Of a stretch of 64,000 nucleotides of DNA, positions 31,534 through 34,812 are shown in pieces; position 1 is the stretch's first letter, and each line of letters begins with the position of its first letter. Location: positions 859 through 64,858 of the forward strand of contig CAZDZY010000002.1 in NCBI GenBank assembly GCA_964510055.1, written 5' to 3'. This DNA comes from an uncultured Christensenellaceae bacterium. GTDB lineage: Bacteria > Bacillota > Clostridia > Christensenellales > SZUA-584. Below the pieces are notes generated by a model. It saw only the letters and a program-made list of their open reading frames with translations, did no database searches and was not told where the DNA came from. A program made the position numbers and the translations under genes.

Positions 31534-32772
31534 TTAATCGTCGATTTCCTCTTCATCGTCTTCGTGTTCGTCGCTTTCTTCATTGTCGTCTTCCGGATCG
31601 CCGGCGTCCGGTTCGTCTTCCTCATCGTCATCTTCAATTTCGCTGTCGTCGCCCGCGTCTTCATCGTCGTCTTTTTCGTCAGGTTCGTCTGTATCGTCAT
31701 CCTCGCCGGTATCCGGGTTTTCCGCTTCTATATCGCCGCCGTCTTCTTCGCTGTTATGTAAGCCTTCGCCTTCCATATCGTCAGGGTAAGGCTGGTTTTC
31801 GTTTCCCGTTCCCAAAACGTTTATATACAGGTATGCAGATAAACTCTTTCCTTCCGCGCCTGCGTTTCCAACTGTTATTTTATATATATTATCTTTTTTG
31901 AGCCCGCCGCATTGAAGCAGCAATTTTTCTCCGTCTGTTTCTTTGATATCCGCCGGGTATTGTGCGCCGTTTATATCCTTCACGGTTATTGTTTCTTTGC
32001 CTGTAAACAAAACCTCTTTGGAGAATTCAACTTCTATTACGCCGTTTCCCGCGTATTTTGCTTCTACTATATACAAGCCGCCTTTTTTCGTATACCGCAG
32101 GCTGAAATCATAAACCCCGGACTTATCCTTATCGTCCATCGCATACTGCTCTTTCCTTAAGGCATTAAAAGATTCCCCGTCCAGTTTTTGAAGCGTGATA
32201 TCTACAGAAAGCCCGGCGCCCCTGACAGTCTCCAATGCCGAAGCCATAAGCTTCATCTCAGTATCCTGCGCGCGCTGCATATCGTTATCCGAGATGGTAA
32301 GAAGGACATGCCCCGTCGATCTGAGCGTGCCGTCTTTCCATGCCTGATTAATTATCTTACTCACACTGTTTTCCGGTTCTCCCAATAACGAGCCATTAAC
32401 TTCGCCTAAAAGAGCATTGCCGTCTTCATTTATTGCTTCTGCTGATATTACATTTCCCCATTGGTTTACTGCAAGCCGCACTCCGGGGTTGATATTTATG
32501 TCTATATAACCGGCGGGCGTAAACGTAATGAATGTCCCAAGCCCCAGCACGCAGATCAAAAGTGAAGCCGCAATAGCGATAGCATAACGCTTCCATGTTC
32601 TATTCTTCGGCATAGATTCCCGCCCTAAAGAGCCCTCTGCCTTTTTGGGAGCCCCGTATTCAAATTCCGCGCCTTCCTTCATCCCGCTTTTTGCCGGGAT
32701 AGTCATAAAAACTCCGTTATCTGCCAGCACGGTCGCTTCTCCGGCGCTTACCTTCATCACTAAAACGTTCAT
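31534..32772 (-). CDS. rsgI: Anti-sigma-I factor RsgI-like protein with poly-acidic C-terminal tail
   Basis: RsgI_N-like start MNVLVMKVSAGEATVLADNGVFMTIPA. Single TM (AIAIAASLLICVLGLGTFITF), extracytoplasmic module, Ig-like segment, and a ~80-aa Asp/Glu tail. 4-nt overlap with sigI. Confidence 0.65.
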   Translation of the reverse strand: MNVLVMKVSAGEATVLADNGVFMTIPAKSGMKEGAEFEYGAPKKAEGSLGRESMPKNRTWKRYAIAIAASLLICVLGLGTFITFTPAGYIDININPGVRLAVNQWGNVISAEAINEDGNALLGEVNGSLLGEPENSVSKIINQAWKDGTLRSTGHVLLTISDNDMQRAQDTEMKLMASALETVRGAGLSVDITLQKLDGESFNALRKEQYAMDDKDKSGVYDFSLRYTKKGGLYIVEAKYAGNGVIEVEFSKEVLFTGKETITVKDINGAQYPADIKETDGEKLLLQCGGLKKDNIYKITVGNAGAEGKSLSAYLYINVLGTGNENQPYPDDMEGEGLHNSEEDGGDIEAENPDTGEDDDTDEPDEKDDDEDAGDDSEIEDDDEEDEPDAGDPEDDNEESDEHEDDEEEIDD

Positions 32773-33461
32773 CGCATATCCTCCTTTCCGAAAAACTTCG
32801 GCAGCACATAATCTTTCAAATGCTGGTATCCTCCGCTGTGGATTATATATGCCGCTATCAAATATCTCCTGTGCCTTTCAAGCAGTTTCTCGCTTACTCC
32901 CAGTTTCTGCGCTATCTGCTTTACAGGCAGCTTCTTCGTCTTTCTGATCTGTTCTTTGAGATCCTCGTCGCTGAGCATCGCTCCCAATACATAGCCGCAC
33001 AGTTCCTTGCTGCTTTTATGCTTCGGCGACGCCTCCGCGAGCTGTTCCAGCTTCATTCCCCAACCGCCCAGCTCATTTACAAAATCCATTATCTCCAGCC
33101 GGCGCTCCTGCCTGTCTTCCACTATCTCCGCCTGCTGTCGCGCGGTATACTGGTCTATATAACCATCTTCTTCATTTTTCAAAACATGCAGGCCGCTCTT
33201 TTTCAGCTTTCTCCGGTTATCGATAAGCCGGTATTTAATGACCGACGCCGCATATGATAAGAAGTTCCCTTTTTCTTCTTTATATGTCTTTACCGCCTCA
33301 TAGAAAGCCATAAGAGCTACGCTTATCTCATCGTCATCGCTGCCGAATCCCTGGTCGTATACGCGCCCTAATATAAACGGGCGGTATTCGGTTATCAGCC
33401 GCTCAAATTCCTCGTTGCTTTCTTTCGCGATGATCGCCCTTTCATTGACAGAAAGGCTCAT
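32769..33461 (-). CDS. sigI: RNA polymerase sigma-I factor
   Basis: 230 aa. EFERLITEYRPFI...ISVALMAFYEAVKTYKEEKGNFLSYAASVIKYRLIDNRRK matches the SigI region-2 pattern. C-terminal HTH PVKQIAQKLGVSEKLLERHRRY. Confidence 0.7.
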   Translation of the reverse strand: MSLSVNERAIIAKESNEEFERLITEYRPFILGRVYDQGFGSDDDEISVALMAFYEAVKTYKEEKGNFLSYAASVIKYRLIDNRRKLKKSGLHVLKNEEDGYIDQYTARQQAEIVEDRQERRLEIMDFVNELGGWGMKLEQLAEASPKHKSSKELCGYVLGAMLSDEDLKEQIRKTKKLPVKQIAQKLGVSEKLLERHRRYLIAAYIIHSGGYQHLKDYVLPKFFGKEDMR

Positions 33462-33642
33462 TTGTTCTCCTTAGGCCAGGTGTAGAATGATATTTATTAT
33501 ATATAAGTTACTGTTGATATTATAATATCTTTATGCTATTATTTCCACCCTTTTCATGCTGTTCATTTTTCATGAGAAGGCTGCGTATAAGCGCAGCCTT
33601 CCGCCAGACCCTATACCTCAGGAGAATTTATGTCCAAAACGG

Positions 33643-34812
33643 TCAGTCGTCTTCCTCCTCGTCATCCTCGTCGTCATCTTCGTCATCGTCGTCATCGTCG
33701 TCATCGTCGTCATCGTCGTCATCGTCGTCATCGTCGTCTTCGTCGTCGTCTTCGTCGTCATCTTCATCCTGATCTTCAACATCGTAATCAAACGAGAAGT
33801 CGAAATCCCAGTCAAGAAGTTTTTCGACGACCTCATCGCTCAGGCCGAGGCCTGCGACGGCCGATACAAACTGTTCTTTCGCCGCGGCTCTTGCGCTTTT
33901 AAACGCGCTGCGGGCGTCTTCCCTCGCCTGCTCAAACTGCTGCTTCAATGTTTCTTTTGCCTGCTGCCATTTCTCCTTGTCACGGTCGATTTCAAAAGCC
34001 GCCTCAGCCGCGTCTTTCGTTGTTTCAAAATAATTTTCGGCGTCTTTCTTTGTCTGTTCATATGTACGTTCAGCAGCCCTCATCGAAGCCTTATAAGCCT
34101 CCAGTGCGGAGTAGACAACTGCCTGCTGGTCAGCCGGCAGGCCGGCAACAAGTTCGTTCCAGTCATCGACTTCGGAAAGGAACTCTTCGGTCTCTTCCAC
34201 AAACTCGAAAACTTTTTCCATCGGGAGGCTGCCGTATTGGGCTATAGCTTCCTCAATAGTTATGCCTTCCTGCTCCGCGATGTAAGAGAGCATCATATAC
34301 CTGCCCGTGGACAGCCCCGACCCTTTTGCCGCCTGCGCTACCTCCGCCGGGACGCTGGCCGCTATAACATCGCAGTCGGCCCCAAGAGTCTCAATGTTCT
34401 TCTCGGCAGTCTCTTTAAGGCTTTTGGTAAGCCCTTTTTCAGCGTCGCCCGTTACCGTGATCACAAGGGAAGCTTCGGTGCCGGCGCTGATATACCCGTC
34501 AGTTGACAATTGTGATATTATTGCCGCTACAGCCTCTTCAGAAGTAAGGCCCGTAACGTCTGTGCCTAAAATAACTGCTGCCCCGTCATCGTTAAATGCC
34601 GCTACTTCCGTAACAAGCCCGCCGGTGAGCGTAAGCTCTATACTGGGGTTAACGTCTAACGTGACGTACGCTACCGCCGGCATTGCCGGTCCATCGCCGG
34701 TATCAGCCGTACTGGGATCAACCGCCGTATCGGCCGGAACAACAGTTGGCTGGCACGCGGTCATTGCCACGATGAATACCAGACTTACAAACAATATAAA
34801 GACCTTTTTCAT
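33643..34812 (-). CDS. Lipoprotein with RsgI-sensor-like N-terminal module and poly-Asp/Glu tail
   Basis: Lipobox VAMTAC. YVTLDVNPSIELTLTGGLVTEVAAFNDDGAAVI aligns by eye with YIDININPGVRLAVNQWGNVISAEAINEDGNAL of the RsgI. The helical middle is followed by a ~45-residue Asp/Glu run. Confidence 0.65.
   Translation of the reverse strand: MKKVFILFVSLVFIVAMTACQPTVVPADTAVDPSTADTGDGPAMPAVAYVTLDVNPSIELTLTGGLVTEVAAFNDDGAAVILGTDVTGLTSEEAVAAIISQLSTDGYISAGTEASLVITVTGDAEKGLTKSLKETAEKNIETLGADCDVIAASVPAEVAQAAKGSGLSTGRYMMLSYIAEQEGITIEEAIAQYGSLPMEKVFEFVEETEEFLSEVDDWNELVAGLPADQQAVVYSALEAYKASMRAAERTYEQTKKDAENYFETTKDAAEAAFEIDRDKEKWQQAKETLKQQFEQAREDARSAFKSARAAAKEQFVSAVAGLGLSDEVVEKLLDWDFDFSFDYDVEDQDEDDDEDDDEDDDDDDDDDDDDDDDDDDDEDDDEDDEEEDD
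33682..33735. repeat. Perfect tandem nonamer (GTCATCGTC)x6 encoding (DDD)n on the minus strand
   Basis: Six exact consecutive 9-nt copies counted base by base. They are embedded in a wider GTC/ATC/TTC-rich tract at ~33646-33780. Confidence 0.9.

Follow-up and report, generated by a model that had tools for sequence, protein, structure and literature searches.

We analysed a 64-kb stretch of contig CAZDZY010000002.1, from an uncultured Christensenellaceae bacterium and referred to below as the window, in which the gene for a predicted lipoprotein lies upstream of sigI and rsgI, encoding a sigma factor and its membrane anti-sigma factor. The three open reading frames (ORFs) named in a preliminary description of this DNA are all present on the minus strand (Table 1), as is the reported 4-nt overlap of sigI and rsgI (ATGA at 32769–32772); rsgI lies directly 3' of sigI in a translationally coupled arrangement that is also found at the loci L085, L087 and L088. 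RsgI and the lipoprotein share a homologous SEAL domain with its cleavage motif, a SigI-type promoter motif precedes the lipoprotein gene and is conserved at related loci, and the three genes are linked. The nearest relatives come from Clostridia and Christensenellaceae metagenome-assembled genomes.

The sigma factor is matched by the NCBIfam SigI models at E 1e-52 and by Pfam Sigma70_r2 at E 2.7e-7, and phmmer aligns it over its full length with the C. thermocellum structures of SigI6 (8I24_F, E 1e-25, residues 19–219) and SigI1 (8I23). The C-terminal domain of SigI1 (6IVU) matches residues 119–216, the SigI-specific domain replacing region 4. By these matches the protein is a SigI. The NCBIfam equivalog cut-offs are not reached (178.9 bits versus 306 for NF006178, and 176.2 versus 185 for TIGR02895), and by that measure it is a divergent family member and the equivalog of no curated subgroup.

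Table 1. Features of the lipoprotein-sigI-rsgI locus, and riboswitch aptamers upstream of lipoprotein homologues (positions in the window unless a locus is named; aa, amino acids; bp, base pairs; pLDDT, AlphaFold per-residue confidence)
Feature	Position	Strand	Residues	Description
rsgI	31534–32772	−		ORF of 412 aa
Putative anti-SigI domain of RsgI			1–39	Beta domain, pLDDT >80 (AlphaFold, residues 1–38); conserved in orthologues
Transmembrane helix of RsgI			58–84	AlphaFold model; single helix, SEAL directly after
SEAL domain of RsgI			88–211	AlphaFold model and Pfam RsgI_M
Predicted scissile pair of RsgI	32485–32490	−	Asn95-Pro96	Turn between strands 88–93 and 97–102
Immunoglobulin (Ig)-like beta-sandwich of RsgI			235–317	Seven strands; CopC/SbsC-like in Foldseek
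Acidic tail of RsgI			321–412	Disordered, pLDDT <50
Intrinsic terminator after rsgI	31496–31524	−		13-bp stem, then T-run; strong
sigI	32769–33461	−		ORF of 230 aa
Conserved 12-mer	33485–33496	−		TAAATATCATTC; between the sigma-A-like −10 and the sigI ribosome-binding site
Sigma-A-like promoter of sigI	33519–33547	−		TGGAAA-17-TATAAT; 10 of 12 consensus matches
GC-rich stem-loop after lipoprotein stop	33576–33601	−		Predicted fold; 10-bp stem, 6-nt loop, no U-tract
Lipoprotein gene	33643–34812	−		ORF of 389 aa; upstream of sigI
Poly-Asp/Glu tail of lipoprotein	33646–33783	−	344–389	46 near-pure Asp/Glu residues; disordered, pLDDT <50
9-nt tandem repeat	33659–33768	−		GACGACGAT, 12.2 copies, 90% match; codes most of the poly-Asp tail
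Helical hairpin of lipoprotein	33859–34134	−	227–318	pLDDT 81–95, mostly 93–95
Small helical bundle of lipoprotein			169–221	AlphaFold model
SEAL domain (RsgI_M) of lipoprotein	34213–34677	−	~46–200	Includes conserved GLSxGRY...EGITxEEA extension
Predicted scissile pair of lipoprotein	34645–34650	−	Asn55-Pro56	Strand 1/strand 2 turn, D53-V-N-P-S-I58; strands 47–53 and 57–63
Predicted signal peptide and lipobox	34753–34812	−		MKKVFILFVSLVFIVAMTA followed by C (Cys20); G+LPPv2 pattern
SigI-type promoter of lipoprotein gene	34848–34876	−		ACCCCCGAAAATTACCGGCAAGCTACGTA; ACCCCC-GA-AA-15N-CGTA; 36 nt upstream of ATG
c-di-GMP-I aptamer	L007 5802–5888			85 bits
c-di-GMP-I aptamer	L008 5790–5874			80 bits
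c-di-GMP-I aptamer	L006 5697–5770			61 bits

The SEAL domains of RsgI and the lipoprotein

SEAL domains have a SEA-like fold and undergo self-cleavage at a conserved Asn-Pro pair in the strand 1/strand 2 turn, the fragments then staying joined through the beta-sheet; the cleavage site has been defined experimentally in RsgI homologues, where residues neighbouring this pair modulate cleavage and are not essential, the main driver being strain in the hairpin (PMC10556640, PMC10328401). Pfam RsgI_M (PF23750, cut-off 25.3 bits) matches both RsgI (residues 88–209, E 6e-16, 59.8 bits) and the lipoprotein (residues 47–174, E 2e-25, 90.4 bits), and hhalign, given the two family alignments, returns a probability of 99.6% (E 1.4e-24, 154 columns). 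Both AlphaFold models find their best match in the PDB in 8T9N, the juxtamembrane SEAL of B. subtilis RsgI. For the lipoprotein model this match has a Foldseek template-modelling (TM) score of 0.72 (E 4e-5), with 8U9O and 8HER coming next; for the RsgI model the score is 0.73–0.80 and 8HDJ is also matched. With either model, C. thermocellum RsgI periplasmic domains come after 8T9N. Judged by sequence and predicted structure, the shared module is a SEAL domain, and the homology of the two ectodomain modules, as proposed in the preliminary description, is upheld by all three comparisons.

The same description saw in the lipoprotein a copy of the RsgI sensor, and this we can not maintain. A direct BLASTP comparison of the two proteins gives 25% identity at E 0.07, and in a tree of SEAL domains the lipoprotein family of the window forms a clade of its own, the members of which are mutually 35–50% identical and share only 17–30% with any partner anti-sigma factor. 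For the window pair the figure is 23%, and given this value and the separate clades we rejected a recent duplication of the RsgI SEAL. The tree instead indicates that the lipoprotein SEAL is an old paralogue, now associated with two different sigma families.

In RsgI, the N-terminus is weakly matched by RsgI_N (PF12791; E 2.5e-4, 21.3 bits against a cut-off of 25). I94, N95 and P96 are invariant in the RsgI-clade alignment (A2), in which the hairpin reads N-I-N-P-G, compared with the canonical D-x-N-P-S, the flanking Asp being replaced by Asn and the Ser by Gly. Three orthologues (P0022–P0024) are 64%, 61% and 33% identical to the window protein. The beta-sandwich offered a lead towards metal sensing, which we rejected, because the likeness to CopC (TM score ~0.6) is that of a generic Ig-like fold and the His/Met ligands are not conserved. 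The overall architecture had been thought undescribed, but a SEAL domain with a charged, disordered tail is the make-up of the characterised, cell-wall-sensing RsgI of B. subtilis, which consists of an anti-sigma domain, a transmembrane helix, SEAL and a disordered tail of ~157 aa with many charged and polar residues, which is needed for sensing cell-wall defects and functions even with a scrambled sequence (PMC9732909). The RsgI of the window falls into this type as a variant; it carries an Ig-like spacer in addition, and its tail is unusually acidic.

The N-terminus of the lipoprotein (MKKVFILFVSLVFIVAMTAC) fits the G+LPPv2 pattern, and lipid modification is thus predicted; the lipobox Cys is kept in 6 of 10 close relatives, and 26 of the 44 representatives of the wider family have a lipobox. 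The SEAL module was said to begin right after the lipobox; the module is the same one, but a disordered linker of ~27 aa intervenes in the AlphaFold model (mean pLDDT 75.9). D53, N55, P56, S57 and I58 are invariant in the lipoprotein-family alignment (A1), and the motif D-[IVL]-N-P-S occurs in 41 of 44 family representatives, the other three appearing to be N-terminally truncated. The helical hairpin is specific to long forms of the protein and is missing from the short forms P0005, L085 and P0008; Foldseek gave no significant structural match for it. For the helical region, too, a metal-sensing lead was dropped, both the Pfam Metal_resist match (E 0.025) and that of CnrX in Foldseek (only at E >1) being insignificant. 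No enzymatic or recognisable binding domain was found on the lipoprotein in the Pfam and Foldseek searches. It has no cytoplasmic or transmembrane part and would therefore be unable to signal, and its polyanionic ectodomain amounts to ~36 kDa.

Long acidic tails were reported for both proteins and are borne out: residues 346–412 of RsgI, its last 67, are 67% Asp/Glu (D/E), residues 344–389 of the lipoprotein are nearly pure D/E, and such tails recur in the orthologues. As the repeat that codes for most of the lipoprotein tail is in frame and liable to slip, strains may differ in the length of the tail. Across the lipoprotein family, tails are polar or charged and of low complexity in 34 of 44 representatives and strongly acidic in 8, and by this count extreme acidity is the exception and not the family rule. 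The full-length family is rare, with 32 clusters at E <= 1e-30 versus 2,145 SEAL-level phmmer hits among 1.84 billion representatives. This family size is taken from the exhaustive search of representatives; a first homologue search with the full lipoprotein was swamped by poly-Asp words (8,000 candidates, 15 hits), a repeat search without the tail added little, and a metagenome scan gave a single weak partial match.

Promoters and gene order

SigI promoters follow the consensus ACCCCC--AA-15N-CGAA in Bacillales and CCCYYAAA-13/14N-CGWA in clostridia (PMC4711584, PMC6056542, PMC10575876). The sequence upstream of the lipoprotein gene, in the form ACCCCCGAAAA-14N-CGTA, is an exact, in-register match to both, and it predicts a transcription start near 34837, ~25 nt before the lipoprotein ATG. 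This is the only exact SigI-type motif in the 64 kb, where dinucleotide-preserving shuffles lead us to expect 0.05; no other strict motif occurs in the window, and a single relaxed match (8884–8908) is within chance expectation. The blocks CCC.C.AAAA and CGTAT..TA are invariant in the window, L085, L090 and the distant L088, while between them the 14-nt spacer shows divergence in L085 and L088 and hardly any change in L090. No Rfam hit was obtained upstream of the window lipoprotein gene, the c-di-GMP-I aptamer included.

sigI is not itself directly preceded by a SigI-type promoter of the kind known from B. subtilis and C. thermocellum. In the window, L087 and L088, the spacer that separates it from the lipoprotein gene (181 nt) is free of CGWA, and any autoregulation of sigI could therefore only occur through read-through from the lipoprotein gene. 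sigI-rsgI probably has a basal promoter of its own, of the sigma-A-like kind: the elements GGTGGAAA...TATAAT, at 17-nt spacing, are invariant in four loci. The GC-rich stem-loop behind the lipoprotein gene is conserved in the window, L087 and L090 and partly in L085, and the 12-mer TAAATATCATTC is invariant in alignment A4 (window, L085, L087 and L090) and could be an operator or a leader element. The idea that the lipoprotein gene is separately transcribed thus stands in so far as sigI-rsgI probably has its own promoter, but the stem-loop lacks a U-tract and read-through is possible. By its motifs, the lipoprotein gene looks like the SigI-dependent one of the locus.

The order lipoprotein-sigI-rsgI is found in four lineages, represented by the window, L085, L087 with L090, and L088/L089. 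L085 is syntenic with the window; at L088/L089 the flanking genes differ, and RsgI identity falls to 33%. The search for RsgI homologues with acidic tails and for linked lipoproteins found both to recur at orthologous loci, and a functional link of the lipoprotein to SigI signalling, as the preliminary description had suggested, is backed by the order kept in four SigI lineages and by the conserved SigI-type promoter. As a separate observation, the lipoprotein homologue of L088/L089 contains an in-frame TAG (3606–3608), after which the frame stays open for ~145 codons, through the conserved motif AVSGLGLTDEQ and on to the acidic tail; both samples (L088 and L089) carry this codon, and a pseudogene, read-through or recoding are all possible.

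We surveyed SEAL proteins across 88 fetched loci and the window. At L002, L004 and L005, members of the same lipoprotein family follow directly, at gaps of 30–60 nt, on an extracytoplasmic function (ECF) sigma gene and its partner gene for an anti-sigma factor that has a SEAL domain and a charged tail. At L034, L039, L044 and L021, an ECF sigma/SEAL-anti-sigma pair is accompanied by a SEAL lipoprotein or signal-anchored SEAL protein, both gene orders being represented, and L035 and L037 probably hold similar ECF trios, no sigma ORF being called there; the SEAL lipoproteins of these six trios fall outside the lipoprotein family of the window. A different pairing was seen in two Clostridium species (L012 3779–6978 and L022 3734–6963), where two SEAL anti-sigma-like proteins with similar N-termini are encoded in tandem; in L012, the locus for which we inspected the ORFs in between, these include an ECF-like sigma gene, an arrangement unlike that of the lipoprotein trios.

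Some homologues are encoded outside any such trio. Those at L006, L007 and L008 lack a neighbouring sigma gene and have a c-di-GMP-I riboswitch directly upstream (Table 1), and the L003 homologue follows rplM-rpsI without a sigma/anti-sigma pair. Gene callers have mistranslated the c-di-GMP-I aptamer into spurious N-termini (for example 'AKQSKGCDAKLKGL') in P0006, P0007 and the L006 ORF. At L001, the gene upstream of the homologue P0001 (3–347) is cut by the contig end, its last 114 residues being acidic and disordered like the tail of the window RsgI, and a PAS-GGDEF-HD gene for c-di-GMP turnover (1982–5047) lies convergent and downstream of P0001.

Lastly, several features elsewhere in the window deserve mention. 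Convergent with rsgI is a type 2A encapsulin shell gene (SrpI-like, PF19307, E 5e-102) with an overlapping class-V aminotransferase/cysteine desulfurase gene downstream (29032–31435, plus strand); the desulfurase product has an N-terminal extension of ~104 aa, the two genes appear to encode an encapsulin together with the cysteine desulfurase that is its cargo, and they are syntenic in L085. A small DUF2089-HTH/SHOCT-like regulator gene (28040–28372, minus strand) is followed by a gene for a membrane protein without a Pfam match (27614–28039, minus strand), a pair that is found again near L085, the orthologous locus. A Na+ riboswitch aptamer (RF03071) at 3132–3179 on the minus strand scores 41.8 bits, just over the gathering score.

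Possible roles of the lipoprotein

The interpretation that we favour, with about even confidence, is that the lipoprotein is a SigI-induced, self-cleaved and sheddable protein with a disordered tail, which acts both as an output of the pathway and as a competitor or feedback partner of RsgI. SigI would be kept inactive by the membrane anti-sigma factor RsgI. By analogy with the published pathway (PMC10556640, PMC10328401), the RsgI SEAL would cleave itself at Asn95-Pro96 with the fragments remaining assembled, tension applied to the tail from inside the cell wall would part them, and the exposed RsgI stub would be passed to the site-2 protease (RasP/RseP), by which SigI would be freed. Freed SigI would then transcribe the lipoprotein gene, while sigI-rsgI would be served by the basal sigma-A-like promoter, perhaps together with read-through across the stem-loop. 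From its motif and fold, the lipoprotein is expected to cleave itself at Asn55-Pro56 and to persist as a non-covalent fragment pair on the outside of the membrane, from which the polyanionic ectodomain could be pulled off and shed. It might occupy, or compete for, whatever engages the RsgI tail, and the result would be negative feedback or a buffering of the signal; competition with RsgI is suggested because the lipoprotein has the same kind of tail, the same breakable joint and no ability to signal. The two halves of this interpretation differ in strength. Because its gene sits behind the only SigI-type promoter of the locus, the lipoprotein is probably a direct transcriptional output of the SigI pathway; that it is also a feedback partner of SigI/RsgI is possible.

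Several points weigh against this interpretation. With its N-I-N-P-G hairpin, RsgI could be cleaved more slowly than assumed, because mutations of neighbouring residues slowed cleavage in published work, and the source genome may contain further sigI paralogues by which the lipoprotein promoter is used. The D/E fractions of lipoprotein tails and partner anti-sigma tails do correlate (Pearson 0.80, permutation p 0.027; Spearman 0.67, p 0.10; n=7), but the points are few and phylogenetically non-independent and genome-wide composition could explain the trend, so that this co-variation is suggestive only. The sigma-free homologues at L006, L007, L008 and L003 point to a cell-surface function that is placed under differing envelope or lifestyle regulators in different lineages, and an independent function at the surface accounts for them no less well than the role of a modulator.

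These homologues bring us to the main rival, in which the lipoprotein is an effector and nothing more. It would then be an envelope protein, polyanionic or polar, that cleaves itself, can be shed and serves a surface function of its own (cation buffering, a matrix or adhesion role, or a decoy for cationic molecules); it would be placed under SigI, an ECF sigma factor or c-di-GMP according to lineage, and would leave RsgI signalling unaffected. We consider it somewhat unlikely, and given the c-di-GMP-controlled relatives it is nevertheless a serious alternative. In its favour are not only the homologues behind c-di-GMP-I riboswitches (61–85 bits) and the one after rplM-rpsI, but also the GGDEF-HD protein that adjoins P0001, and an old SEAL clade partnered with two unrelated sigma families, as would be expected for a movable regulon member. 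Force-dependent release of surface proteins by autoproteolytic domains has moreover been proposed in a preprint (10.64898/2026.05.12.724683). What such an effector leaves unexplained is why the neighbouring regulator should so frequently carry a SEAL as well (four SigI lineages, three ECF loci and about six loci with unrelated SEAL lipoproteins) and why the composition of the tail should track that of the partner; the lack of an enzymatic or recognisable binding domain also speaks against it.

A broader form of the feedback interpretation would be that SEAL-only lipoproteins are a general third component of SEAL-based sigma/anti-sigma mechanotransduction, in SigI/RsgI and ECF systems alike, induced by the sigma factor and acting in trans on the anti-sigma factor. 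This appears unlikely to us as a general rule, but two routes can be envisaged. The lipoprotein could compete for the wall sites, or for the force, by which the anti-sigma tail is pulled, or its cleaved first beta-strand could be swapped with that of the anti-sigma SEAL, either re-capping the stub or parking the shed ectodomain; both routes would serve to reset or tune the pathway. For the poly-Asp lineages, a further possibility is that the ectodomain, once shed, soaks up cations or cationic peptides as a polyanionic sponge.

Third genes of sigma/anti-sigma operons often modulate the anti-sigma factor, and the lipoprotein might accordingly be an obligate co-sensor, the SEAL of which binds the RsgI SEAL, as a heterodimer or by exchange of the first beta-strand, and either holds RsgI closed or delivers the pull, as a third component comparable to RseB beside RseA or CnrX beside CnrY. 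A SEAL-only protein does recur beside SEAL anti-sigma factors in both gene orders and with two sigma families, and the first strands are alike (Y-I-D-I-N-I-N in RsgI versus Y-V-T-L-D-V-N in the lipoprotein). However, family members exist without a sigma/anti-sigma pair, and the lipoprotein SEAL sits on a flexible linker of 27 aa whereas that of RsgI is flush with the membrane. Since the model SigI/RsgI systems of B. subtilis and C. thermocellum function without a lipoprotein partner (PMC9732909, PMC10328401), we regard an obligate partner as quite improbable.

That the genes are accidental neighbours, with a common domain, low-complexity tails, an order inherited from shared ancestry and a chance promoter match, is highly improbable: three of the four SigI lineages are indeed fairly close (RsgI 61–64% identical) and SEAL proteins abound in Firmicutes (2,145 phmmer hits), but arrangement and promoter persist at L088 with an RsgI only 33% identical and other flanking genes, the promoter blocks have been kept while the spacer diverged (L085, L088) with 0.05 exact motifs expected per window, and ECF-sigma trios occur independently in distant taxa.

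Comparison with known systems

The window system resembles that of B. subtilis (Brunet 2022, Brogan 2023) in its coupled rsgI, in an RsgI made up of a putative anti-sigma domain, a transmembrane helix, a juxtamembrane SEAL with Asn-Pro and a charged disordered tail, and in the Bacillales-like form ACCCCC--AA-15N-CGWA of the promoter. It differs in the Ig-like sandwich, the 67% D/E tail and the N-I-N-P-G hairpin of its RsgI, and in that the SigI-type promoter precedes the lipoprotein gene and not sigI; no SEAL-only partner has been described for B. subtilis. With C. thermocellum it shares the structural match to SigI6 and SigI1, the periplasmic fold of RsgI (8HDJ, 8HER, 8U9O), the Asn-Pro site and the promoter logic of a specificity region, an A-tract and CGWA. 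Here, in contrast, RsgI has no carbohydrate-binding module or recognisable ligand head, its tail is charged where C. thermocellum has a neutral linker, and a lipoprotein paralogue is added.

The only SEAL proteins without an anti-sigma domain that we found mentioned in the literature are the SEAL-PepSY fusions (Brogan 2023). Like the lipoprotein, these have a SEAL with a conserved hairpin and neither a cytoplasmic anti-sigma domain nor a transmembrane segment, but they lack a disordered tail, whereas the lipoprotein has a helical region and a disordered tail in place of PepSY, is predicted to be lipid-anchored, is linked to sigma/SEAL-anti-sigma pairs and has a SigI-type promoter. RpoE-RseA-RseB and CnrH-CnrY-CnrX offer a functional analogy only, in that the sigma and anti-sigma genes are joined by one for a further, exported protein, by which the anti-sigma factor could be tuned from the cell exterior; there is no relationship in sequence or structure, and the accessory protein is here a paralogue of the anti-sigma factor's own sensor domain. 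The eukaryotic SEA and GAIN domains and the microbial MAIN domain (2026 preprint) share with the predicted behaviour of the lipoprotein a self-cleavage in a beta-hairpin, non-covalent fragments and force-dependent shedding of an ectodomain. The lipoprotein differs from them in having the SEAL fold, a lipid anchor rather than a transmembrane helix or cell-wall attachment, and, in place of an adhesin, an enzyme or a toxin, a cargo that consists of a helical region and a disordered polyanion.

The SEAL domain, its chemistry and the sensor that combines it with a disordered tail are thus already known, and what is new is the wiring of the lipoprotein to the system. In the searchable literature, with the supplementary tables of Brogan 2023 excepted, we found no description of a SEAL-only lipoprotein with a disordered tail, of its linkage to sigma/SEAL-anti-sigma pairs, of its SigI-type promoter or of its control by c-di-GMP riboswitches.

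To our knowledge, SigI/RsgI is the best-studied candidate for mechanotransduction in bacteria, and the source of the pulling force and the way in which the signal is shut off are not yet known. A lipoprotein that is encoded beside the sensor, is apparently induced by it and has the same joint and tail would be a natural candidate for a feedback or reset component. If it is an effector only, it would still be the first defined member of a SigI regulon in these uncultured Clostridia, and a rare example of a predicted lipid-anchored, self-cleaving polyanionic protein. The relatives behind c-di-GMP riboswitches tie SEAL-mediated surface shedding to second-messenger control of the cell surface. Together with the occurrence of SEAL-only lipoproteins beside SEAL anti-sigma factors in two unrelated sigma families, these relatives suggest a principle of design that is general and not peculiar to one genome.

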